A DNA stretch of 29,753 bases. Source: a virus. Taxonomy: Duplodnaviria > Caudoviricetes. Below are positions 1-25,343 of this stretch, in pieces (positions within the stretch are counted from its first letter, which is position 1; each line of letters begins with the position of its first letter). The stretch lies in IMG/VR virus record IMGVR_UViG_3300011335_000586, positions 1 to 29,753 of that record. One strand, given 5' to 3'. Below the pieces are notes generated by a model that was given only the letters and a program-made list of their open reading frames with translations, was not told the origin of the DNA and ran no database searches. Made by a program: the position numbers and the translations under genes.

Positions 1-414
1 AAACCGCTGCGCACAACCTTCCAAGGTGAAGCGAATCCCAAAGCCAAAGCAAAAAGTGTGTTTTGATCCATTCCTGAGCCTGCCGCTTCGCCCCCCTCGC
101 AGCCCACTCAATTTAGCGAAGACTCGGGGTGCGGGGGCGTGGGTACGTAGGCTAGCAGCCTGCTAGCAGCCGGGGCGGCGCGTGCCAGGGGCCGGGGTAA
201 GCATTCTTTTATTGAGGCGCGGAGAGAGGGGGCGGGGGAGGGGGATTTTGCGCGCGCGTGCGTAGGGGGGCGTCTTAACTTCCGTCGAGTAAAATCAGGT
301 TTTATGGTTTCTATAATCCTGCTTATTGCGCGAGGCTGGCAGGCGTAGCGTAGCGAAGCCAACCCAAGTATGTTGCGCGATGCAATTCCCCTAGGGGCTC
401 CTCTCTGTAAAACA

Positions 415-2284: not shown

Positions 2285-3055
2285 TTAAAATCCAGAAGCT
2301 CCAGTCGGCCCCGTAGGTCCAGTCGGCCCGGTTGCTCCCGTAGCTCCCGTAGCTCCCGTAGCTCCCGTAGCGCCCGTAGCGCCCGTAGCTCCCGTGGCTC
2401 CAGTAGGCCCTGTTCCTGCCGTCCAAGCCCAGTTTGGAACGAGTCCCCAAATCAATTCGCCGCTGGACGTGGCTTTGCGCGCCTTTTGCAGATGAGTGGT
2501 GGTGAGCTGGTCAATCCGCAGGCTCGGTTTCAGGTCAGGAAAGTCGCCGGGATCGGGGAACGGCGCATCCGGCATTGCGTTGACCGTGCTTTTGCCAGTA
2601 AACACTGCGCGCACATAAGCAATGGGCTGTCGCCAGATATTACTCACACCTGCGCTGTTGGTGTACATTGAGTTCCCCCAGCTTGCTCCATGCTTTAGGA
2701 TTGGGCCTGCGGTAATTGTTCCGGCAAAGTTAAAAGTCATCTCCAGCCAAACCCAGTCTCCGCTTGTCAATGTCATCTTGCTATCAATGTCGGTAATGGC
2801 TGCGGTCAGCGTCAGGTTGCTTTCGTCCAAAAATATCCATCCACGCCGCACATAAGCAAAAATAGAAGTTAGTGCGTCTGACGTAAATCCAGCACCATAA
2901 ACTTCAAAAGGATGAAGTTTAACTTCCTGCGGTACATCAAGCGAAGTATATGGTTTGCTTCCAGGATAATCGGAAGAACCACCAGAATTAGGTTCTGGAA
3001 ATCCGGCAGGAACAACCCGTCGAATTTGGTTTAACGTGGAGTCGAGTTCTTCCAT
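2285..3055 (-). CDS. Putative virion protein with C-terminal collagen-like (Gly-X-Thr) tail
   Basis: Ends in 13 consecutive G-X-Y triplets: GPT, 8xGAT, 3xGPT, GAS. It has a TAATG overlap with the upstream gene. Confidence 0.7.
2294..2410 (-). repeat. 9-bp tandem repeat encoding collagen-like G-A/P-T triplets
   Basis: The unit gctcccgta/gcgcccgta and variants repeat in tandem on the + strand. Confidence 0.95.
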
Positions 3056-6943: not shown

Positions 6944-9900
6944 ATGGCATTTGATCCTGACGTTTTTCTTGCGGAGGGCGGCGGGACTGCCGTTGCGGAA
7001 GCTCCGTTTGATCCAGACAAGTTTCTTGCTCAGGATTCCGCTATATTCGACCCAGACGCGTTTCTTGCTGGCAGCTCCCCCGTTGGTTCGATAGCTACTC
7101 CTTCGGTCAATACCGGAGACTACACCATCTCCAGCGCCAAGGCTGCGCCGACAAACGCTGTCCCGGCTCTTAGCCCTATTAACGGAGAATGGACTCCAGA
7201 AGTTATTGCATCCCAGAACGCCAGGGCTGACGAATTTAATCCCCCAACGGAAAGCGCACTTCGCGAAAGAAGTTATAACGAGGCGTTGACTCCATTCTTT
7301 CAAGAAAGTCAGGGTCCGCGAAGACTTACCAAAGCTGAATGGTGGGCGTCACAAACACCAAGAGTTGAGGCGTTTGAACCAAAAACATTTACTAGCGAAC
7401 TAGGTAAAAACGACATTCCTGGAGCAATTGGAGTTGCTTATAAAGCTGCTCGCGAATCATTGACTGGCATTCTTCCTCCTACTGAGGAACAAATTCTTAA
7501 CCAATCTGTGCCGTGGGGAACTAATCCTGATGGTAGTATAAAATACGAATACAAACCGCTAGGCAGTCGGCTCGATAAAACAGGCATAATGACACCTTTG
7601 CTTGAGACGCAAATGATGCCTCCAGAAGCAGGTGATAGCACTATGGGTGCAGTCGGAAAATCTACATTCAATTTTATGGCCGGGTTGGTCAATTTTGGAT
7701 TGAGTCCATTGGGCATTGCGACGGTGGGGCTTGGGGCCGGGACTGGTGCGGCTACTCGCGCAGCAGGATTTGCTCCGGCTGGCTTAGGCGCAGAAGGGTC
7801 CGTTGCCGCGCAAACTGCCGCAAGGCTTGCTGCTACAGCCCGTGTAGCATCAGGGGGATTTGCAATAGACATGGCATCGGCTGTGCCTGAACAATACAAG
7901 GCAGCAACAGAATCGCCTACATTGCAAGGTAGGATTGAAGGATGGCTAGGAACCGTATCTTCATTGGGCTTTGCGGCATTGGCAGCTAAACACGCAGCCA
8001 AAAAGCCACTAGAGCTTGCAGAGCGTCAAACTATTGAAAGCGTGGTGGAACTAGCTAAACGCACACCGGATGCCGTTCTGGAAACGGTGGCGCGCAACAT
8101 GGAAGTAGATGTGTATTCGCGCAATCTGGCTATAGCGGAACTACAACGCCGCCAAACGGAGCGGCAAGCCGCACTTGCGCCAGAGGCTGCTGCTGCTGCT
8201 GAAGCGGCAGGAACCGCGCTGCCTAGCGGCACAGCAGGACCGCCCGCAAAACCAAACGCCTATGATGGAATAGATTCGCAGGCAATACAAGACGCTCTGG
8301 ACGGTAAGAATGGAACGATTCCAAACCCGACAGATAGGGCAGCAGCGATAACAGAACTGGAAAGAAGGCAAGCCAAAGATACTGCTGCTAAAACAACAGA
8401 ACCGCCTGATCCGGCGGCTACTGCTGTTGGTGTTATCAAAACAGCAGCGGCTGCTGATGCGGCTGGTAAGCCGTTTTCGCCACGCATTGAAGAGCCTGGC
8501 ACACCGACGCCATACGGGCGCGAGACGGACGTATATGATATTACGACAGGATTGCAGCGCAAACCAACCCCCGCCGCGCCCGCTGCGCTGGAGGTTGCTA
8601 CACCCGTTGCGCCGGTGCCTGAGTCGGTTGTAAGTCCAAAACCAAAAGGACCAGAGCCAACCATTCAACAATCTCTCAATGAAGCCTTAGAGGTTTCAGG
8701 CGACTTGCCAAGCGCGTGGGAGAACTTGGACAATCAAGTAAAGGCGTTGGAAAACAACGAAACAAACAAGGCTGCTATTAAACGACTCAATGCCGCTAAA
8801 CGCAAAATTGCGAACACGCTGGAAGAAGAGTCGAGGCGCGCAGAAATCGAACAATTAGAAGTAGAACAAAATAAAGGATACGAGTTGCTTTCAAGCATCA
8901 AGCAGCTTGGTGGTTTGCCGACGCTTGGCGAGAAGGGGCGCTATGCTACTGGAGAACTAAAGCGCATTGCGGAGACATCTAAAGGCGCGTTTTTAAGTTT
9001 CTTTCGCAAGGGCGCAAAGTCGCTGGATCAATTACGCGAAAGCCTAAATGAGCGTGGATTTGATTTTGAAACGCCCGAGCAAATGCTCATGGCAATTGAA
9101 GACTCGCTTGCCACAAACAAAAAACAATATAGCAGTCAGTTTCCAGAAGGATATGTTGGCGGTGGCGGCGCGATGGGGCCGGTTGAAAGGGCGTATCAGG
9201 ATGCGTCGCGAAAGATTTTCCAGTCCGCACAGGAGCCGATTCAGCAACGGCGCGTAGAAGAGCAGCGCGGAGACCGCGAAGAGTGGTTGCGGCGTAGCGA
9301 TCCTGAACGCATGGCGGAAGCTGAGTCGATCATGGAAAGGGACCCGCAGGCTGGTCAGAAATTAGTGGATAGCATTAACGCTGGCGAAACCAAATCCGCT
9401 ACCGATGTTCAAGAATTGATTCTTGCCCGCGAATTGATAGACCAGTACGCGGCACGCGATGCGGCGGCGGAACGTCTTGCTGACCCTGACCCAACAATCC
9501 CGCCAACGGAACGAGCTTTTTTTGAAAAAGAATTTAACGCAGCAAACGAGCGCATTGGTAAAACTGAGGACGCATCTGACAAGACTGGCAGCGAGAAAGG
9601 CGCGGGATTTCGGATGCGGCGAATGATGATTGCAGACGATTATTCATTGCGGGGACTTTCGCGGCGGGAAAGGAAGATGAAGGGGCGTGATTTAACACCG
9701 GAAGAAATCGAGGCGTTGCGTAAGGAATCCAACGCAATTAAGAAAAAACAGGAAGAAATTGACAGCGTTGTTGAAAAGGAAAGCAAGGAGCAAGAAGAAG
9801 CTGCTGTGGATTCGGTGCTTGCCGCTGCTATTGCTGACAGGGAGGCGCAAAAGTCCGAAGCGCAGAAGTCAGGCAATCTGCCGTACAACCAGAAGGTATT

Positions 9901-12763
9901 AGAACAAGCCGAACGCATTGTTTCTAAATGGGAAGAAGAGGCGGTTGGCGCTGCTGAAAGGCTAAAGGATTTCTTTGGAAGCGAAGCAGGCTCCGTTGGG
10001 GGAGTAGGCGGACCAAAGGGTTCTGGAAGGTATCTTAGCGGAAAGTCAAAAAAACCCGGATACTCAAACAGAGCCGAGGAAAACAGCAGAATCAATGATT
10101 TGGCGGTGGTCATTTGCGCCAAAATTGGTCGTTTTTCACTGGACCGAACCAAGACTCTGGAAACATTGCTGGTGCAGTTTGGTGACGGTGTTCGACCGTA
10201 TTTTGACAAAGCATGGAAGGCGGCGCAAAAGATCATTGGCGCGGAGGTTGCGTCCAAGCCGACAAAAGTAAAAGAAGCCATTAAGACCGGCGCAACGGCA
10301 CCGGAGAAACAGCCAAAACCACCGAAACCGCCGAAGTCCAAGGATACGCTGGTTGGCGAGGGACGCGCGGCAGTCGAAAAAGGTGAAGGACTGCACAATG
10401 TGGTGGCGCAAATCGTGGACGGGATGATCGACGCCGGGAATCGTGACCGCGCAGACATCTTCAAGCGCACGACCAAGATTGTTCAGGAGTTTATGCCGGA
10501 GGCCACGGAACGCGACGTGAACCGGGCGTATGTGGACTACGGCAAGAAGAGCTACCCGAATCCCGATGAAGCGGCGGCGTTCAAGCGCAAGACGCGGCAG
10601 GTGAAGAAAATCGGTGAGGACATAGACCGCCTGAAAGAAAAGATGCGCCCCGAATTGCAGGGGTATCAGCGCGAGAAACTGGACCTCGAATTGCGCGATC
10701 TAGTGAAGCAGCGGAGCGAACTACTGAAAGACCCGACTTTGCCGCAAGAACCGGGTGCGTTCGCATCCAAGGACGACGCCAAACAGACCCGCATCAAGAA
10801 TCGCATCGAGGAACTGGACCGTTACTTGAAAACCGGCGAGAAGCCCGTGGAGAGCAAGCCGACTCAGCCGGACAGCGCGAAAACCGAGCAGATGCGCGCC
10901 GAGAAAGAGGCGCTGGAAGCCTACGTGAAGGAAGTGGATGCCGCCAAGAATCCGCCACTGTCCGATGCTCAAAAGGCACTGGATGCCGCCATGATAGCGC
11001 GGGAGCGCGCTGGGCAGGCCTTGGACGATATTTCCACTGGCAAGGTGAAAGACCCCGCCAAGGTTAAGGAGGCGCTGACGCAACTGGAAGAGGATGTGCG
11101 TCTCGAAACCGATGCGCTCAAAGCACTTGCCGCCGAGATGCGCCGGGATGCCAAGCCAAAGGGCGATCCTGGCTATCTGAAAGAGCAGGCGCAAATCAAG
11201 GCGCTGGAACGCGCGATTGCCAGTTACGCAGACAAAGTGGCGAAAGGTGACTTGGCCGGAAAAGGCAAGGTGATGGGGCCGGACTCGCGCCGTGTCGCGC
11301 AGTTGAAGGCGATTCGTGACTCGCGCCGCGCCGCCTACAAAGCCGCGAGGGACGCAGGGAAGCCGGTGCGTTCACCCGAGGATCGCTACAACGATACGCG
11401 CCTGAACGCGATGAAGCGGCGCGAAGAGGATTTGAAAGCGCGCGCTACCCGGCAAGCCGCTGGCGACTTCTCGAAAAAGCCCAAGCCCGTCACGCCCGCG
11501 CTTCGCCGCGATGTTTTGAACAAAAAGGCGGAACTGCAAAAGATGAAGGACGAAATCGACCTTCGCCAAAAGGAGTATGAGCTAAATCAGCAACCGGCAT
11601 GGCAGAAGGGCGTCAGGGCGCTCGGTGAGGCGCGCGGAATCATCCTTGGCGGCGATCTTGGCGTCCTGACGCGGCAAGGTGCGTTTGCGTGGTCGCATCC
11701 GATCAACTCTACTGTTGGCGTTATAAAAGCGACTCAGGCAATGTTCTCGCCTGAGGCAATGGGCCGATGGGAAGTGGAGATGCGCGAGCGCGTTATTGAT
11801 GGGAAGCCTGTTGCGCCGATTCGCAAGGAAGCCGGACTGCAAACCACGGACACGATGAGTCACCCGGAAGAAATGGTGATTTCGCGCCTGCTATCACGGA
11901 TGCCGGACATCAAGATTGGCGGAAGGACGATCAAAGCGTCCGTTTTCTTCAAAGGACTGGAGCGATTCCAAACCACGTTCATCAACGATGTTCGGATGCG
12001 GACATTTGACGCAGCGGTAAAGCGCGGCCTTACACCTGAGGAATTGAAGTTGCTCGCAAACTTCATCAACAGCGCCACTGGACGGAGCAACGCCAAAATG
12101 GTCGGTCCTTGGATGTCTGCGATCTTCACGTCTCCGCGCTACGAGCGTTCGCGTTGGGAGATGATTGGTCAGCCGGTTCGTAATATCGGCGCGCTGGCTC
12201 GTTCGGGCGTAAAAGGCGAGCTAAACCGTGCGGCATTGTCGAACCTAAAAGACATGGCCGTGACGGCGGCGGGCGCTGTGGTTCTTTTCCAACTCGCCGC
12301 ATCGGCGGGAGGCTACAAGGTAAATTGGGACCCGGAATCCAGTGACTTTCTCAAAATGCGGAAAGGCGACGAGGTTTGGGACGTAACTGCCGGATTGGCT
12401 CCGCGCATCCGCGATTTGATGCGGCTTTGGGTTGGTTGGAGTCATCCTGACTACAAAGAAAATTGGATGAAGACCGGCGGAAAGATGATTCTCAGAACGA
12501 TCAATCCGGCGCTGAAAACTCCAGTGGAACAGCTTTCCATTGCCAAGCAGCGATTTGAAGGTGTGGAAAAACCAAAATCTCCATTTACAGGGTTCAAGTC
12601 TGTGGAGGAGCGCGAAGGGCTTATTACTTTAGCGCCTTTGATTATCCAAAGCATGAAACAGGCTTACGAAGAAGATGGGGTTGAAGCTGCGGTGTTTACT
12701 GGGGCGCGCGAGTTTGTTGGTTCATCGGTTGGTCGTTACCCAGAATCTAAAAATGACCGCTAA
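6944..12763 (+). CDS. Giant (1939 aa) putative internal virion / DNA-ejection protein
   Basis: N-terminal FDPDxFLA x3 repeats, Gly/Ala hydrophobic stretches at about aa 245-350, and a long charged helical core. It is nearly Cys-free. The size and architecture match large podovirus ejection or polyvalent proteins. Confidence 0.6.
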   Translation: MAFDPDVFLAEGGGTAVAEAPFDPDKFLAQDSAIFDPDAFLAGSSPVGSIATPSVNTGDYTISSAKAAPTNAVPALSPINGEWTPEVIASQNARADEFNPPTESALRERSYNEALTPFFQESQGPRRLTKAEWWASQTPRVEAFEPKTFTSELGKNDIPGAIGVAYKAARESLTGILPPTEEQILNQSVPWGTNPDGSIKYEYKPLGSRLDKTGIMTPLLETQMMPPEAGDSTMGAVGKSTFNFMAGLVNFGLSPLGIATVGLGAGTGAATRAAGFAPAGLGAEGSVAAQTAARLAATARVASGGFAIDMASAVPEQYKAATESPTLQGRIEGWLGTVSSLGFAALAAKHAAKKPLELAERQTIESVVELAKRTPDAVLETVARNMEVDVYSRNLAIAELQRRQTERQAALAPEAAAAAEAAGTALPSGTAGPPAKPNAYDGIDSQAIQDALDGKNGTIPNPTDRAAAITELERRQAKDTAAKTTEPPDPAATAVGVIKTAAAADAAGKPFSPRIEEPGTPTPYGRETDVYDITTGLQRKPTPAAPAALEVATPVAPVPESVVSPKPKGPEPTIQQSLNEALEVSGDLPSAWENLDNQVKALENNETNKAAIKRLNAAKRKIANTLEEESRRAEIEQLEVEQNKGYELLSSIKQLGGLPTLGEKGRYATGELKRIAETSKGAFLSFFRKGAKSLDQLRESLNERGFDFETPEQMLMAIEDSLATNKKQYSSQFPEGYVGGGGAMGPVERAYQDASRKIFQSAQEPIQQRRVEEQRGDREEWLRRSDPERMAEAESIMERDPQAGQKLVDSINAGETKSATDVQELILARELIDQYAARDAAAERLADPDPTIPPTERAFFEKEFNAANERIGKTEDASDKTGSEKGAGFRMRRMMIADDYSLRGLSRRERKMKGRDLTPEEIEALRKESNAIKKKQEEIDSVVEKESKEQEEAAVDSVLAAAIADREAQKSEAQKSGNLPYNQKVLEQAERIVSKWEEEAVGAAERLKDFFGSEAGSVGGVGGPKGSGRYLSGKSKKPGYSNRAEENSRINDLAVVICAKIGRFSLDRTKTLETLLVQFGDGVRPYFDKAWKAAQKIIGAEVASKPTKVKEAIKTGATAPEKQPKPPKPPKSKDTLVGEGRAAVEKGEGLHNVVAQIVDGMIDAGNRDRADIFKRTTKIVQEFMPEATERDVNRAYVDYGKKSYPNPDEAAAFKRKTRQVKKIGEDIDRLKEKMRPELQGYQREKLDLELRDLVKQRSELLKDPTLPQEPGAFASKDDAKQTRIKNRIEELDRYLKTGEKPVESKPTQPDSAKTEQMRAEKEALEAYVKEVDAAKNPPLSDAQKALDAAMIARERAGQALDDISTGKVKDPAKVKEALTQLEEDVRLETDALKALAAEMRRDAKPKGDPGYLKEQAQIKALERAIASYADKVAKGDLAGKGKVMGPDSRRVAQLKAIRDSRRAAYKAARDAGKPVRSPEDRYNDTRLNAMKRREEDLKARATRQAAGDFSKKPKPVTPALRRDVLNKKAELQKMKDEIDLRQKEYELNQQPAWQKGVRALGEARGIILGGDLGVLTRQGAFAWSHPINSTVGVIKATQAMFSPEAMGRWEVEMRERVIDGKPVAPIRKEAGLQTTDTMSHPEEMVISRLLSRMPDIKIGGRTIKASVFFKGLERFQTTFINDVRMRTFDAAVKRGLTPEELKLLANFINSATGRSNAKMVGPWMSAIFTSPRYERSRWEMIGQPVRNIGALARSGVKGELNRAALSNLKDMAVTAAGAVVLFQLAASAGGYKVNWDPESSDFLKMRKGDEVWDVTAGLAPRIRDLMRLWVGWSHPDYKENWMKTGGKMILRTINPALKTPVEQLSIAKQRFEGVEKPKSPFTGFKSVEEREGLITLAPLIIQSMKQAYEEDGVEAAVFTGAREFVGSSVGRYPESKNDR
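6950..7069 (+). repeat. Three FDPDxFLA peptide repeats
   Basis: FDPDVFLA, FDPDKFLA and FDPDAFLA begin at about 6950, 7007 and 7046. Confidence 0.9.
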
Positions 12764-15470
12764 AGCCAAGCCCGCGCCGCGCATTAGTTACGACAACTTT
12801 GCGTTGCCTCCCGGTTATGAGCCGTGGCACCTGTGCCTGACCAAGTTTGGACTTGGTAAAGGCGAGGAAAAGCTAAAATGGTTTAAACGTCTTGTTACTG
12901 AGCTTTGGCCGGAACCGCTATTCATGTGGGACAGGTGGAGCGACCTGTTCTTTGGCGCGTTGTGCGGGGCAAAGGAAACTGTGGAGTCTACTATTGGCGC
13001 AAAGATTGAATCTGATTATCCGTGGTGGGAGCAATTAACAGCTACAGGAGCCGCTGGGTGTATTGACGCAAAAACACGAATCCTTGACCCAACCACAGGA
13101 GAATCGCCGACCGTTGAAGAACGCTACAAAATCGGAAAGCCATCATGGGTGATGACGCTTGGCGGGCCGGTTTTGGCTGACGTTCCATTTATCAAGGGAA
13201 CAGCGGAACTGTTTGAGGTTGCGCTGGATGACGGATCGAAATTTACGGCCACCGCAAATCACCGGGTTCTTACACCGGATGGATACAGGTTTGTTTCCGA
13301 GCTTTCCGTTGGCTCACCGCTGTTAGGATACGAGCCTTCCCGTCCTCAGACCACTTTGGACATTGACCGCGCAGTTCATCGCGAAGATGCGCTCCATTGC
13401 TTTGGTAAAGCTCAAGATTCTCAATCCGGTTATCGTCCTTCTTTTTGTTCCGGTGGTGGACGACCTCCGTCTTCAGAAGCGGACGCCCAAGATGTTCCGA
13501 CATCACAAGTCGATGTTCAAGAACGTATCTCTTACTCATCCTTGTCGCCATCGGATGACCCGGTTTGTAAAGAAGAACGTAACCATCCTTATCAATCACG
13601 CGACCCCCGTTCCATGTGGAGCACCTATCGCCCTTCCACGAAGTTGGAAAAATCCGAGTCTCTCCATTCCTGCGAAGAAATAGAGATACGCGAGTGTCTG
13701 TTGTCCCAATCGCTTTGCCAATCTGGCTCAAGGAGCAGCCCTTCGCGTTCATCTCAAAAACAAGGGCGCGATTCTTTTCACAGGCACCAAGCGGGCCATG
13801 TCGAGGAGCAGGAATTTCATTCATGCGTTGGCTATACAGTGCGACTGAGACTGGTGCAAGCAATAACGGAGGTTGGAAGCAAGATTTATTACGATCTGAC
13901 AGTACCGGAGCAGCACCACTATTTTGCAGAAGGGGCAATCCACCATAATACAGGGAAAAGTTCTAGGGCCGCGTTATGGGTTCTTTGTAACTGGCTGTGC
14001 GCCCGCGAGCATACAACCTGTATGTTGACCTCAACCAGCGTCACTGCTCTTAAGCAGCGTATCTGGAGCGAGCTGGTGGACTGGATACAGAAGTGTAAAC
14101 AGCCATTGTCAGACCCTACCATTGGCTGGCTACAAATTGTTCCATCCGACACCATTATACGGTGGAGTGGTGAGGATACAAAGAGCGCCATATTTGGGCG
14201 TGCAGTCGATCAGGGCGGTTCCGTTGATAACGCGGTTGGACGCATCAAAGGCATTCACAATCGCCGCGTGTTTGTTGTTACGGATGAAATGACTGCTATG
14301 CCAGAGGCTATTGCCAAAGCATGTCGTAACTTGGATTCCGGGACAATGGAGTTCCAGTTTATTGGGCTAGGTAACGCCACTGACTATTCTGACCAACACG
14401 GGATTTACTGTGAACCGGTGGACGGCTGGAACAGCGTTACGGTTAATGACGAGTTCTGGTTGACCAAGCTAGGCGGTTGTTGCGTGCATTTAGATGGTCA
14501 CAAGTCGCCGTCATTGGACAATCCGGCCAAGTATCACTTTTACATTGGGCGCAAGAAACTAGAAAAGGATGCGCGATTCTTTGGCGGCGAGAACACCCCT
14601 GACTACTGGCGCGAGTGCCGAGGCTTTTGGGCTCCTTCTGGTTTGTCCACAACGGTCATGGATGCGTTCCTGCTGTCGCAGTTCAATACATCTGACAAAG
14701 CCATGTGGAAATCACGCTGGGAGATGGGCGCTGGCTTTGACGTAGCATTTGAAGGTGGCGACAGGCGCGTGCTTTACCCATTCAAGTTTGGCGAGTTTGC
14801 CAACGGAGTTAAGGGCATTGAATTTCAAGCCCCAGTCATCGTGAACATTGACATGACTCAGGACAAACGGTTCATCCACTACGGCATTGCTGCTGCCGTT
14901 GAAGAGACATGCCGGAACTACAAGATTGACGGCAAACCGCATCCAATCTTGCCGCACAACTTGGCGTGTGACGTTACCGGTGAAGGTGCTGGACCGTTTG
15001 GCATTATGTCAGGAAGCTGGTCGCGGGACATTATTCCAGTGGAGTTTGGTGGAGCAGCCGAAAAGACGGCAGTATCCGCAGACCGACCAACAACGTGGCA
15101 TGAGCTTTACGGCAACAAAGTTACCGAGATTTGGTATTCGATGCGTCGATTCATTGAAGGCGGACAGGTGAGAGGGCTTACCGACGCCGATACAATCCGC
15201 GAGTTGACTTCCCGTGATTACGTCCGAAAGGGCAACAAGACGCATGTGCTGCCCAAGAGCGAGATGAAGAAGCTAAAGTCCCGCAGTCCCGATTTAGCGG
15301 ATGCGGCTTGCATTGCCGCGTTTGTGCTTCGCAAAAAAGGGATTATGCCAGCAAGCGTAGCGGACAATGTGGTAATAGACTCAAGTGCATGGAACGCGGC
15401 GGCTGAAAAAATGAACATGGAAGGAAATGAATCGGACTACGAAGATTCAACGTCGGCTTTTGCAATATGA
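12753..15470 (+). CDS. terL: Terminase large subunit, intein-containing
   Basis: Removing the intein restores Walker A GAAG/TGKS. Other motifs are Walker B VFVVTDE, coupling motif GLGNA, and RNase H-like nuclease motifs GFDVA, DVTGEG and SPDLADA. Likely start is ATG 12753, an 11-nt overlap with the upstream gene. Confidence 0.92.
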   Translation: MTAKAKPAPRISYDNFALPPGYEPWHLCLTKFGLGKGEEKLKWFKRLVTELWPEPLFMWDRWSDLFFGALCGAKETVESTIGAKIESDYPWWEQLTATGAAGCIDAKTRILDPTTGESPTVEERYKIGKPSWVMTLGGPVLADVPFIKGTAELFEVALDDGSKFTATANHRVLTPDGYRFVSELSVGSPLLGYEPSRPQTTLDIDRAVHREDALHCFGKAQDSQSGYRPSFCSGGGRPPSSEADAQDVPTSQVDVQERISYSSLSPSDDPVCKEERNHPYQSRDPRSMWSTYRPSTKLEKSESLHSCEEIEIRECLLSQSLCQSGSRSSPSRSSQKQGRDSFHRHQAGHVEEQEFHSCVGYTVRLRLVQAITEVGSKIYYDLTVPEQHHYFAEGAIHHNTGKSSRAALWVLCNWLCAREHTTCMLTSTSVTALKQRIWSELVDWIQKCKQPLSDPTIGWLQIVPSDTIIRWSGEDTKSAIFGRAVDQGGSVDNAVGRIKGIHNRRVFVVTDEMTAMPEAIAKACRNLDSGTMEFQFIGLGNATDYSDQHGIYCEPVDGWNSVTVNDEFWLTKLGGCCVHLDGHKSPSLDNPAKYHFYIGRKKLEKDARFFGGENTPDYWRECRGFWAPSGLSTTVMDAFLLSQFNTSDKAMWKSRWEMGAGFDVAFEGGDRRVLYPFKFGEFANGVKGIEFQAPVIVNIDMTQDKRFIHYGIAAAVEETCRNYKIDGKPHPILPHNLACDVTGEGAGPFGIMSGSWSRDIIPVEFGGAAEKTAVSADRPTTWHELYGNKVTEIWYSMRRFIEGGQVRGLTDADTIRELTSRDYVRKGNKTHVLPKSEMKKLKSRSPDLADAACIAAFVLRKKGIMPASVADNVVIDSSAWNAAAEKMNMEGNESDYEDSTSAFAI
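13270..13824 (-). CDS. HNH homing endonuclease with N-terminal HTH, antisense inside the intein
   Basis: WNGGRVIDKDGYVLLYKPGHP...YVLEHRLVMSEHLGRPLLKTEVVHHRNKKKDDNRIENLEL is the phage HNH_3-type signature. The N-terminus KGCSLSQIGKAIGTTDTRVSLFLRRNG is HTH-like. ATG 13824 gives 184 aa. Confidence 0.9.
   Translation of the reverse strand: MNEIPAPRHGPLGACEKNRALVFEMNAKGCSLSQIGKAIGTTDTRVSLFLRRNGETRIFPTSWKGDRCSTWNGGRVIDKDGYVLLYKPGHPMATRMSKRYVLEHRLVMSEHLGRPLLKTEVVHHRNKKKDDNRIENLELYQSNGAHLRDELRGQCPKWSEDGKARILTAVSQRKARKQTCIHPV
13831..13859 (-). promoter_or_regulatory. Putative sigma70-like promoter for the antisense HNH gene
   Basis: The minus strand reads TTGCAC (13859-13854), a 17-nt spacer, TATAGC (13836-13831), 6 nt, then ATG (13824). 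Confidence 0.55.
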
Positions 15471-22249: not shown

Positions 22250-22974
22250 AGCGCGTCCTGATTTTTGTTATTAGCTGCAATCGGCCTCCATACGATGAGA
22301 TGATTACCACATCAATGGCTACGTGGGATTCTGCGGAGGTTGAGAATACGGAAACGTATTACTATTGTGGCGGTGGCGGCAAATCGTCAGCCCGCACCAT
22401 TGTCTTTGATGGAGAAGATGACTTTCACCTTATGGGGCATAAGAATCTTTTGGCGTTTAAGTGGGCGCTAGAGAATAAGCAATGGGACTACATGGCTAGG
22501 GTGAACGCATCTTGCTATGTGCATAAACAAAACTTGTTGAATCACGTTCAATTACTTCCAGAAACCGGAGTAATGAGCGGACTTATTTCGGATGGAAATT
22601 TTGGAAGTGGGATTAGCTTTCCGTTTATGTGGGGCGGGTCCGGTATGATTATCTCCAGAGACGTTATCCAGCTTGCCGTAGATAATGGCGCGCAATGGGA
22701 CCATTCATTTGCAGAGGATGTTGCTATGGGAACTCTTGTTCAAAAGCACGGAATCGTATTGGACGGAGCAGGGTCGGCACTCACCATAAATCCAAACAAG
22801 GGTGAATACGTTTGTATGTCTTACCGAGATAGGGATATGGAAGTATCAAGCATTAAAGACTTGTCCGAACTAAGCAGGTTTCAAAGCCACCATTTCTTTC
22901 GGGTTAAATGCGAAGCCAACAGACCGCACGACGCAGTTTTAATGCGAGCACTAAAGCAATTCCTTATACCATGA
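22246..22974 (+). CDS. GT31/fringe-like glycosyltransferase, paralog 2
   Basis: ATWD, WDYMARVNASCYV, FMWGGSGMIISRDVI and AEDVAMG (EDV motif). It is collinear with the previous gene. Confidence 0.65.
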   Translation: MKRVLIFVISCNRPPYDEMITTSMATWDSAEVENTETYYYCGGGGKSSARTIVFDGEDDFHLMGHKNLLAFKWALENKQWDYMARVNASCYVHKQNLLNHVQLLPETGVMSGLISDGNFGSGISFPFMWGGSGMIISRDVIQLAVDNGAQWDHSFAEDVAMGTLVQKHGIVLDGAGSALTINPNKGEYVCMSYRDRDMEVSSIKDLSELSRFQSHHFFRVKCEANRPHDAVLMRALKQFLIP

Positions 22975-23525
22975 ACAAATCACTTTCAGAAATTTTCAAT
23001 CAAATCGGTCATTTCGGTGAAGACATAGGACATAACGATAAAGGAGGGACGCACTCATACGTTGATGTTTATGAAACGCTGCTGGCCCCTTTCCGCCAGC
23101 GTTGCGATATAATGGAAATTGGGCTTGCAATGGGTAAATCAATGGAGCTTTGGGGCAAATACTTTGGGGCGGACTGCACTATAACTGGCATGGACCTGAG
23201 CCTTGTATTTGATGTTACGCCTTTTGATAGTCGGTTTCGGTTTATTGCTGGAGATGCAACCAGCGCAAAAGTATTGCAGGATATAGGAGACGCAAAGTTT
23301 GACATCATTATTGATGACGGAAGCCACATGCAAGCCGACCAAGAGGCTGCATTTCGCCTGCTATCACCGCGAGTTAAGGCTGGCGGCATTTACATCATTG
23401 AGGACATTCTTAGCCCAGAATCTAGCGTCCCATCGCTTTGCGCGCTTCATCCAAACTGCGAGGTAATTGATCTGCGAGGAGTGAAGGGTCGGTTTGATGA
23501 TATGTTGTTGGTTTATCGTTTCTAA
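22971..23525 (+). CDS. Class I SAM-dependent methyltransferase (sugar O-methyltransferase-like)
   Basis: DK...HSY, IMEIG, ITGMD, FDIIIDDGSH and GGIYIIEDI. Start at ATG 22971 (ATGA overlap). Confidence 0.85.
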   Translation: MNKSLSEIFNQIGHFGEDIGHNDKGGTHSYVDVYETLLAPFRQRCDIMEIGLAMGKSMELWGKYFGADCTITGMDLSLVFDVTPFDSRFRFIAGDATSAKVLQDIGDAKFDIIIDDGSHMQADQEAAFRLLSPRVKAGGIYIIEDILSPESSVPSLCALHPNCEVIDLRGVKGRFDDMLLVYRF

Positions 23526-23527
23526 CT

Positions 23528-24205
23528 ATGAAGATGCTCGTTACTGGAAAAAGCGGATTTGTTGGTCGTCACGTTGTGCGCGAACTGGAAAGCCGGGATG
23601 TCGAGATTGTGCCAGACTTCACTGACCGTCCCGAAGCGGTGATCCATCTAGGCTGGGGCCATCTCCCAAACTACGAATCATACTTGCACGCGGCACAGGT
23701 CCAGTGGCACCACGGCTTCTTGAGCGCGGTCATTGGCGACGGCATCACAAACATCACCGCAGCGGGAAGCTGTCTAGAGCTGGTTGACGATCCGCCGCCA
23801 TACGGATTAGCCAAGATCAGCGTTCGCGACGGGTTGCTGTGGCGGCTTCCTACAGCCAAGTGGGTTCGTTTCTGGAATGTCTACGGGCCAGGGCAGCGCG
23901 AGGAATGTTTGCTGCCGAGTCTGCGGCGGGCAATGGAGCGTGGCGACGAATCTTTCCAAGTGATTGACGGGATGCGCGATTTTATACCCGTTCAAGATGC
24001 GGCACGTAGGCTGGTTGATATTGCACTGCAAGAGGAGGAGTCTGGCGTGTTTGATTGTGGCAGCGGAACCGCTGTTCCAGTGATTGATTTCTGCCGCAAA
24101 TTCACAGGTGATAGCGCGATCCGACTAGAAACAGGATACCCGATGCCGTCCTACGAACCGAAAGTGTTTTCAATCCGCAACCGCAATGAGCACGGCGATA
24201 GATAG
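23528..24205 (+). CDS. NAD-dependent NDP-sugar epimerase/reductase (extended SDR)
   Basis: LVTGKSGFVG (GxxGxxG), YGLAK (YxxxK), RFWNVYGPG and RDFIPVQD. Confidence 0.9.
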   Translation: MKMLVTGKSGFVGRHVVRELESRDVEIVPDFTDRPEAVIHLGWGHLPNYESYLHAAQVQWHHGFLSAVIGDGITNITAAGSCLELVDDPPPYGLAKISVRDGLLWRLPTAKWVRFWNVYGPGQREECLLPSLRRAMERGDESFQVIDGMRDFIPVQDAARRLVDIALQEEESGVFDCGSGTAVPVIDFCRKFTGDSAIRLETGYPMPSYEPKVFSIRNRNEHGDR

Positions 24206-25343
24206 CTGCCTGTGCTGCGAGGGGTCGCTGGTTCCTCTGGTAAACTTTGGCCGGATGCCGTTGGTAAATACCTACGGCGTGACGGAAAAGTTTCCGTTAG
24301 CCGTAAACCGCTGCAAGGTTTGCTGCCATTTGCAGTTGTCGGAGGCGGTTGATCCGCTGGTGCTTTACAGTGATTACGCCTACTGCTCCGGCACCGGGAA
24401 AACCGCATTGGATTTCTTCTCAGGGTTTGCTCGAACGGCGTTGTCCTACGTTCCAAATGCCAAGCGGGTTCTGGACATTGCCAGCAATGACGGAAGCCAG
24501 TTGGATGCATTCAAGGCACTTGGGCTTTCAACGGCTGGGGTTGATCCGGCTGCAAATCTTGCCGAGATTGCCGCCGCCAAGGGGCATCTAATTCGCATTT
24601 CACTTTTTGAAGATGCAAAGTTCTTGCCGGACCAGAAATTCGACATCATCACCGCTCAAAATGTAGTGGCGCATACGCACCGGCCAATGGAGTTTCTGTC
24701 CCGATGCACGGACATTATGCACAAGGATTCGCGGTTGTTCATCGCTACATCACAGGCAAACATGGTGGTGCTGGGCGAGTGCGACACGATCTACCACGAA
24801 CATATTAGCTACTTCAACGCGGGGTCCATGATGCGCTTGGCCGAACGTGCTGGGCTACGGTTGCTGGACATTGTGATGAACGACATCCACGGCACCAGCT
24901 ACGTCTTTGTGCTGGGCATTGCTGGCGAACCGTCTGTCCGTGTGGCGCAACGTATACAGTGGGAGAAGGCGGTGGGGTTGACTAGGCCAGGGCTTTATAG
25001 ATGGTGGAAAACTCATATCGCGGAGAAAATCGAGCGTTTGGGCAGAACGATTGACGGCTACAAAAAGGATGGATTCTTAACTGTGGGCTGCGGGGCTGCG
25101 GCAAAAGGCATCTCAATGTTGAACATGGCCGGGGTAAAATTGAATGTGCTGGCCGATAATACGCCGACAAAACATTACAAAGTGACGAGCGGGATGTTGA
25201 TTATGCCGTTTGACGAGATTGCCAATTTGCAAGAATCCAAAGTGCTGTTTGTGGTGCTAGCATGGAATGTCGGGTTGGAGATTCGTCGCAATGTAGAGCA
25301 GATGCGAAGCAGAGCGGGAGATGTGTTTATTGAGACACGTTGA
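24186..25343 (+). CDS. NDP-hexose C-methyltransferase-like protein
   Basis: N-terminal zinc site CLCC...CKVCCHLQL, VLDIASNDG, GVDPA, NVVAH, DTIYHEHISYF, HGTS, GAAAKG and VLAWN. This is the TylC3/EryBIII-type motif set. Confidence 0.9.
   Translation: MSTAIDSCLCCEGSLVPLVNFGRMPLVNTYGVTEKFPLAVNRCKVCCHLQLSEAVDPLVLYSDYAYCSGTGKTALDFFSGFARTALSYVPNAKRVLDIASNDGSQLDAFKALGLSTAGVDPAANLAEIAAAKGHLIRISLFEDAKFLPDQKFDIITAQNVVAHTHRPMEFLSRCTDIMHKDSRLFIATSQANMVVLGECDTIYHEHISYFNAGSMMRLAERAGLRLLDIVMNDIHGTSYVFVLGIAGEPSVRVAQRIQWEKAVGLTRPGLYRWWKTHIAEKIERLGRTIDGYKKDGFLTVGCGAAAKGISMLNMAGVKLNVLADNTPTKHYKVTSGMLIMPFDEIANLQESKVLFVVLAWNVGLEIRRNVEQMRSRAGDVFIETR

Follow-up and report, generated by a model that had tools for sequence, protein, structure and literature searches.

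An intein with a nuclease gene on its opposite strand lies in a 29,753-nucleotide stretch of viral DNA (Duplodnaviria; Caudoviricetes; IMG/VR record IMGVR_UViG_3300011335_000586, positions 1 to 29,753), which we analyzed at its full length and refer to as the window. We conclude that this is probably a mobile two-strand element, in which a predicted self-splicing intein interrupts the ATP-binding loop of a probable terminase and an antisense gene for a helix-turn-helix (HTH) plus HNH endonuclease would drive its copying (Table 1). The intein and its HNH gene are under selection on both strands, and the layout of an intein with an antisense HNH gene is common in environmental phages. The arrangement was first proposed from the sequence alone (here called the original prediction); the present work puts this single locus into the broader perspective of a family of related loci.

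The intein, its host gene and the antisense HNH gene

The intein splits the Walker A motif of its host protein (GAAG-TGKS), in which a Walker B motif, VFVVTDE, is also visible, and its class 1 residue set is complete: C1, a TANH motif at residues 65-68, D279 within a YYDL motif at residues 277-280, and H296-N297 followed by a +1 Thr. The TANH and YYDL motifs are what we take to be blocks B and F, respectively. Pfam Intein_splicing matches the intein at E 2.4e-7 (31.1 bits, under the 35.8 cut-off), TIGR01443, for the intein C-terminal region, at 20.1 bits (over the 15.6 cut-off), and TIGR01445, for the N-terminal region, at 20.5 bits (under the 24.5 cut-off). An AlphaFold model, built from an alignment of 5 sequences, shows both ends folded and residues 96-257 with pLDDT below 50, and the top Foldseek match of this model (mean pLDDT 46) was the splicing domain of the Mtu RecA intein (E 1.5e-5). 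The sense linker alone matched no family in Pfam. The intact splicing blocks and the linker without a recognizable domain thus agree with the original prediction. Because the catalytic residues are complete and conserved and the empty alleles are exact, we predict that the intein excises itself from the host protein. It differs from a canonical homing intein in that the nuclease is on the minus strand and the sense linker has neither a family match nor a fold, and from a fractured gene with a split intein in that the host gene is unbroken, one continuous frame of 905 aa.

This host gene is most likely that of the terminase large subunit. An intein-free allele of it (locus L010) encodes 608 aa, and in the ESM Atlas the intein-free allele had a feature score of 0.99 to clusters with 13% terminase-Pfam members. 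A PHROG terminase match lies mostly over the intein's C-terminal part.

On the minus strand, HNH_3 matches the open reading frame at 13824-13270 with E 1.2e-8 (34.9 bits, over the 24.8 cut-off), and the PHROG matches of its protein are 11 HNH families and one of unknown function. The catalytic residues H123, H124, N132, N136 and H146 are invariant in 52 sequences, and the C-terminal helix bears a family motif, HL..EL.G.CPKWS. The protein was modeled by AlphaFold with a pLDDT of 86.8, and among 48,161 solved chains the best match for the HNH core (64-153) was I-HmuI (PDB 1u3e), a homing endonuclease of the HNH type from a phage; a sequence search of solved structures with the HNH protein returned HTH repeats only. 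The likeness to I-HmuI is one of the HNH core, at 22% identity, with an N-terminal HTH and a C-terminal helix on the side of our protein; I-HmuI is intron-encoded and has a different DNA-binding layout. The ATG of the HNH gene lies opposite intein residue 256 and its stop opposite residue 71, and the last ∼60 nt of the N-terminal splicing region also encode the HNH C terminus on the other strand. A complete HTH plus HNH gene with these boundaries had been claimed, and both claims stand, with Hint-type profile matches on the plus strand, HNH_3 on the minus strand, and the HTH present in the model.

Table 1. Features of the two-strand element and its host gene (positions in the window)
Feature	Position	Strand	Remarks
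Host gene, likely terminase large subunit	12753..15470	+	Single open frame; 905-aa precursor, 608 aa without the intein
N-extein, 102 aa, ending ATGAAG	12753..13058	+	Followed directly by TGKSS in the 22 close alleles lacking the intein
Intein, 297 aa, class 1 residues	13059..13949	+	Stop-free insert CIDAKT...TANH...YYDL...HHN, then TGKS
N-terminal splicing region	13059..13337	+	Cys1; block B T65-A-N-H68 (13251-13262)
Sense linker, ∼162 aa, Ser/Glu/Arg/Gln-rich	13338..13823	+	Antisense read-through of the HNH gene
C-terminal splicing region	13827..13949	+	Block F Asp279 (13893-13895); His296-Asn297 (13944-13949)
C-extein, starting at +1 Thr (TGKS)	13950..15470	+	95-100% identity to 25/27 related loci; dN/dS 0.016
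HNH endonuclease gene, 184 aa	13270..13824	-	HTH ∼13-52; HNH core 64-153; C-terminal helix
Candidate -35 hexamer TTGCAC (3/6)	13854..13859	-	Inside intein codons 266-267; weak, not significant alone
Candidate -10 hexamer TATAGC (4/6)	13831..13836	-	17 nt after the -35 hexamer, 6 nt before the HNH ATG

Selection on both strands, at the locus and in the family

Two IMG/VR contigs, L008 and L009, carry the same intein with its HNH gene, and their identity to the window is 89% in the HNH protein, 77% in the intein and 98% in the C-extein. Per-frame Nei-Gojobori comparisons of the window with these two gave a dN/dS of 0.11-0.15 for the HNH frame, 0.03-0.04 for the non-overlapped N-terminal splicing part (13059-13268) and 0.12-0.15 for the C-terminal splicing region (13827-13949). 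For the sense linker (13332-13823) the apparent dN/dS is 4.4-4.9, a high value that arises because the wobble position of the HNH codons is position 2 of the sense codons, on which 43 of the 64-65 linker differences sit. These data show that selection keeps the HNH protein on the minus strand and merely bars stops in the sense linker, in agreement with the dual coding originally predicted. As a separate observation, dS in 13059-13268 of the window against L008/L009 is ∼1.3, far above that of the exteins (0.35-0.57); we read this as the circulation of two older alleles of the intein among terminase alleles that are young.

The open sense frame had also been presented as improbable by chance, at about 4e-4 from (61/64)^165. 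For one locus this figure overstates the case: if the HNH protein is held constant and codons follow the usage of this phage, 4.3 sense stops would be expected, with P(0) = 0.005. The single-locus argument is thus weaker than originally put, and it is the family-level stop test that decides.

We assembled a family set of 275 loci plus the window from profile scans of viral, metagenome and GTDB contigs (among 917 candidates scored, 876 are relatives of the HNH). The three large scans contributed the best 80 of 479-537 relatives each, a top slice with some contigs present twice, and counts from it are no true ratio. Within the set, 112 HNH genes lie antisense inside one continuous intein frame, and three more half-detected antisense loci, two of them whole on inspection and one cut by the contig end, bring the total to 115/276; the other 161 are free-standing, none is in frame with an intein, and none has its splicing halves in different frames. 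All loci above 144 bits are antisense in an intein, and all 90 loci with the C-terminal tail motif have an open antisense frame. The codon register is the same in 115/115 antisense loci. It is not the most open one, with 666 stops in the free-standing genes against 553 and 745 in the other registers, and this shared register argues for a single origin.

Clustered at 70% identity, the loci form 78 antisense and 122 free-standing clusters. No sense stop was found in the antisense clusters against 417 expected, compared to 666 against 717 expected in the same register of the free-standing ones. Likewise, Phe followed by I, M, T, N or K, a dipeptide that forces a sense stop, occurs 0 times in the antisense HNH proteins against 52 expected. 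It is practically negligible, then, that the arrangement is an artefact, either of misassembly or of a decayed intein whose reverse strand is open by chance. Long antisense frames do open by chance over other genes of the window (250-280 open codons over two of them), and some open antisense frame is present at 26/161 free-standing HNH loci, mostly GC-rich. Such an explanation is nevertheless refuted by the independent assemblies, the selection on the HNH frame, the 115 loci in one register and the HNH_3 match above its cut-off. The locus also stands as assembled, a point on which the original prediction had invited a check: besides the IMG/VR contigs, the intein is covered in 4/4 sequencing runs from four studies, and both junctions are crossed by a single contig of run X9.

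The splicing and nuclease residues are conserved across the family (77-cluster counts omit L153, for which the junction was not parsed). The HNH catalytic pattern is present in 77/77 clusters, the terminal His-Asn in 71/77, a +1 Ser, Thr or Cys in 77/77, C1 in 68/70 parsed clusters and TxxH in 55/70. Block B was parsed in 55 members. In 35 of these the stop of the HNH gene is located upstream of the block B His, at a distance of up to 62 codons, and most of the N-terminal splicing domain is thus encoded opposite the HNH tail. Median pairwise identity across the family is 30% for the splicing parts, 37% for the HNH proteins and 16% for the exteins; examined for co-evolution, identities among 64 clusters correlate weakly between splicing parts and HNH (rho 0.27), and at 0.24 between HNH and exteins and 0.10 between splicing parts and exteins, which we do not count as proof. 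Two groups of members are worth separate mention. L153, in a GTDB metagenome-assembled genome labeled Mycobacterium sp. (HNH match 2501-2956), has an AAA+-like Walker A motif with a +1 Gly (HHN-GGKS) and hence no ligation nucleophile; it is a dead copy, an assembly error or a case of unusual chemistry. Loci L039-L049 are 11 near relatives with the antisense element at a GGNR-SGKT site, suited to an overlapping-frame codon model. Among annotated and cultured phages, 14 records match at E <=1e-15, none covering 80% of the HNH protein, and the two best-looking (H2 and H13) are annotated as free-standing HNH genes.

The insertion site is nearly always a P-loop, directly before [ST]GK[ST]. Scanned at E <=0.01, 75 hosts (besides L153, two clusters, the window and one with fewer than 60 extein residues, were left out) comprise 34 with terminase families, 13 with other NTPase families (AAA, AAA_24, AAA_25, AAA_34, SNF2, ResIII and one weak SbcC) and 28 without a match. 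This range of hosts bears on the idea that the HNH protein is kept for another job, such as assisting the terminase as a nuclease or attacking co-infecting phages, with the intein as its shelter. HNH proteins that aid terminases are known (PMC11855218), and the homing target site of our HNH is itself putative; the same HNH family, however, also occurs in AAA+ ATPases and SNF2/ResIII helicases, the 13/75 hosts above, nearly always at the P-loop, and 24/26 related terminase alleles do without the element, which leaves this explanation very unlikely.

Probable mobility, expression and origin of the element

In the mechanism that we favor, the sense mRNA would be read through all 297 codons, which are observed to be open, and the splicing domain would fold round the shapeless linker, excise it and rejoin the Walker A loop. 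The HNH protein would be made from its own antisense transcript, driven by a sigma-70-type promoter in the intein's C-terminal DNA and, in this lineage, leaderless. During co-infection, it would nick or cut a terminase allele that lacks the intein, close to the Walker A codons, and repair would copy the intein into it; such nicking is suggested by a possible I-HmuI-like fold together with the allele pattern. On one strand selection preserves the HNH protein; on the other it only keeps the frame free of stops. More speculatively, a promoter of its own could supply the nuclease ahead of the late terminase gene, at a time that allows homing, and terminase output may be reduced by the antisense RNA.

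The allele pattern fits continued spread. The C-extein was found at 27 loci, and of the 26 junctions that could be read (L028 has no junction) 2 are filled and 24 empty, with 22 close empty junctions reading GAAG-TGKS; filled and empty alleles occur together in 3/4 runs. The empty target in the original prediction consists of the two flanks of the intein in the window joined together; the empty alleles found in nature depart from it at wobble positions. L008 and L009 are ∼99% identical in the intein and 94-95% in the exteins, and the run X9 contig differs from the window at 1/891 intein bases and 21/451 C-extein bases. Near-identical inteins in more divergent terminase alleles fit recent homing. 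Dual coding does not explain this identity peak, because the window and L008 differ more in the intein than in the extein; at such longer distances identity is 80-90% in the intein and 90-91% in the extein, that is, the intein diverges faster. On a tree of the distal C-extein (20 full-length close loci and the window), the three filled alleles do not group and 3 changes are needed. Sliding identity among the IMG/VR alleles showed no clear co-conversion tract. Taken together, the patchy filled and empty alleles and the identity peak on the intein relative to the exteins support the original prediction of a mobile element, and the intein with its HNH gene is probably still mobile. One locus, L027, has at its junction (position 3001) an empty terminase site with a +1 Val (AS-VGKS), which is unable to host a splicing intein and might be an escape from homing.

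Promoter-like and ribosome-binding signals for the HNH gene likely lie in the C-terminal coding DNA of the intein throughout the family. In 76/77 clusters the HNH gene starts with an ATG at a distance of 77-245 nt (100-165 nt in most) from the C-terminal end of the intein, and the 90 nt upstream of this ATG that we searched for promoters are entirely intein-coding DNA. The best sigma-70-type match there has a family mean of 8.4/12, compared to 6.6 after synonymous recoding (Wilcoxon p 5e-11, a null uncorrected for local AT richness and with some HNH starts perhaps miscalled) and to 7.4 on the other strand (p 5e-5); a match of 10/12 is reached by 17 members, against 1 on the other strand. A Shine-Dalgarno-like word precedes the HNH gene in 45/77 clusters. 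A -10 box 4-8 nt before the ATG occurs in 13 of the 31 members that have a promoter-like site but no Shine-Dalgarno-like motif, and in 0 of the 45 with such a motif. The HNH start in the window is a candidate for this leaderless geometry, with the right spacing and a weak sequence; L008 and run X17 read TATAGT at the -10 hexamer (13831 G>A).

Several results weigh against the interpretation given so far. L008 and L009 are near-identical in the intein, and the dN/dS values are effectively one comparison. The precursor matched no terminase family in Pfam, and the intein-free host protein had no match in PHROG or NCBIfam. The match of the HNH core to I-HmuI is modest (Z 6.9, rmsd 3.7 over 79 residues, 22% identity), and Foldseek with the HNH model put I-HmuI at E 0.71 and returned nothing at E <=0.001. 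The promoter candidate of the window scores 7/12 (p = 0.66 against synonymous recoding), and a stock promoter scan gave 2 sites against 1.5 expected, neither of them at the HNH start. On the HNH core tree described below, 12 free-standing genes fall inside the branch that holds the antisense clusters, with 9 label changes, and a single antisense clade was not obtained. Finally, the extein tree is poorly resolved and compatible with one gain followed by losses, and in a mosaic phage population the insert could also travel by ordinary recombination.

The last of these points, together with the insignificant promoter site, would suit a reading in which the intein splices and the HNH is real but (nearly) silent here, so that the element moves by inheritance and ordinary recombination. 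In the -10 candidate of the window, the final T retained by L008 and run X17 is also missing. Yet the HNH frame has a dN/dS of 0.11-0.15 with every catalytic residue intact, and allele identity peaks on the intein in two separate comparisons; a silent HNH is therefore distinctly unlikely, and we retain homing driven by an expressed HNH as the preferred reading.

How the two strands came together can be approached from the relatives of the HNH gene. A tree of the HNH core (83 columns; 5/200 clusters without the core pattern were left out) places all 78 antisense clusters in one 90-row branch (support 92), in which free-standing relatives are interleaved with the antisense genes, as would fit the invasion of a mini-intein by a free-standing gene. 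Of 18 long homologues found, 11 are SNF2-type helicases with a related HNH core in frame in an intein. In these 11 (P0127-P0130, P0132-P0134 and P0136-P0139), the in-frame HNH intein is compact and located at the Walker A site. They match mainly the HNH core, at <=115 bits, with one match reaching profile position 157, and the family tail motif is absent from those of their HNH sequences that were inspected; against the profiles of the antisense family, their N-terminal splicing part scores 12-25 bits in 10/11 and the C-terminal part matches in 1/11.

One could therefore imagine that the HNH of a canonical in-frame HNH intein was flipped, a change to the history of the element and not to its present mechanism, and the 11/18 homologues with a related in-frame core at the same kind of site would be its closest models. 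We consider such an inversion unlikely, since the in-frame forms resemble the antisense family largely in the core and only faintly in the splicing parts, and since the antisense genes come with starts, stops and expression signals of their own, with free-standing genes interleaved on the core tree. A separate capture of the HNH is more likely. The original prediction had an HNH gene invade a mini-intein in reverse at this locus. The invasion model fits the interleaved free-standing relatives, and the in-frame HNH relatives keep it conditional; as an event at this locus it does not hold, in that the invasion is old, most likely a single event, after which the finished element spread intact to many P-loop NTPase genes.

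Elsewhere in the window, an open reading frame of 1939 aa (6944-12763, plus strand) lies just upstream of the terminase gene and has no PHROG match, and two methyltransferase-like genes and one nucleotide-sugar epimerase-like gene lie at 22908-25343 on the plus strand.

Relation to known systems and implications

The original prediction knew of no earlier description of the architecture, but inteins with an antisense nuclease have been published. Gosselin, Arsenault, and Gogarten report, in the text available, 63/784 inteins with a non-canonical nuclease, call successful integration "extremely rare," and describe antisense LAGLIDADG and antisense VSR-like nucleases, out-of-frame endonuclease VII and in-frame HNH inteins in actinobacteriophages; many of the non-canonical inteins are in terminases, and a model of invasion by free-standing nucleases is given (bioRxiv 10.1101/2025.01.02.630785). 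The first antisense case is credited there to Gorbalenya 1998, and Gogarten 2002 is cited as well. As far as that text goes, those inteins resemble ours in being whole, with an antisense nuclease reading frame between the splicing blocks and an unstructured sense linker, and in their terminase hosts, invasion model, phylogenetic signs of continuing spread and patchy presence across extein relatives. In contrast, the nuclease here is an HNH (only HNH families match), which in the available text appears in frame only; here 78 clusters of one HNH family share one register across several NTPase families; and the HNH stop here lies inside the N-terminal splicing region, whereas the second reading frames described there are typically outside the splicing domain. 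In the literature searched, to which InBase and most subscription journals did not belong, we found no antisense HNH in a whole intein. Judged by its sequence, the intact antisense HNH intein is the HNH version of the published two-strand design.

Other elements share single traits with it. Phillips, DeSimone, and Gogarten describe a cyanobacterial dnaX intein with an out-of-frame LAGLIDADG nuclease and a per-frame dN/dS test (bioRxiv 10.64898/2026.09.14.751524). There, too, splicing and homing occupy separate overlapping frames, with low dN/dS for the nuclease and high dN/dS for the intein frame, filled and empty alleles occur in one population, and a Shine-Dalgarno motif precedes the nuclease; unlike here, the nuclease is a LAGLIDADG in the frame called +2 in one cellular host gene, and HNH is never mentioned in the part of the text available. 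The ShiLan element of Arsenault et al., an out-of-frame HNH in a mycobacteriophage methylase without an intein (PMC11855218), likewise hides an HNH gene in a stop-free host frame, with leaderless translation proposed; according to the available text it differs in having no splicing domains, in using an alternate frame and in staying in the host protein. The fractured genes with split inteins of Dassa et al. 2009 (PMC2677866) have a free-standing nuclease gene with its own expression signals between the intein halves. As described in the portion available, the host gene there is in two pieces on one strand with a GIY-YIG or VSR-like nuclease, whereas here the host is continuous and the nuclease antisense.

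What stands out among antisense HNH inteins is the size of the family, its uniformity and the expression signals written into the intein. We tentatively suggest, at a little under even chances, that antisense-nuclease inteins include an old, very successful class of single origin, in which the intein DNA doubles as promoter and ribosome-binding site and the nuclease is separately timed. If so, antisense-nuclease inteins are not rare transitional accidents. Many phage inteins recorded as "decayed" or as lacking a nuclease are probably active mobile elements with the nuclease on the other strand, which annotation of one gene per stretch misses. The family is also a large natural data set for overlapping genes, with protein selection on one strand and stop avoidance on the other, the latter strong enough to have removed one class of dipeptide from the HNH protein. 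It offers compact HNH nucleases putatively directed at P-loop codons, as well as inteins in which long unstructured inserts are tolerated. It makes testable whether inteins gain nucleases through invasion by free-standing genes and whether homing is helped by uncoupling the nuclease from a late gene.

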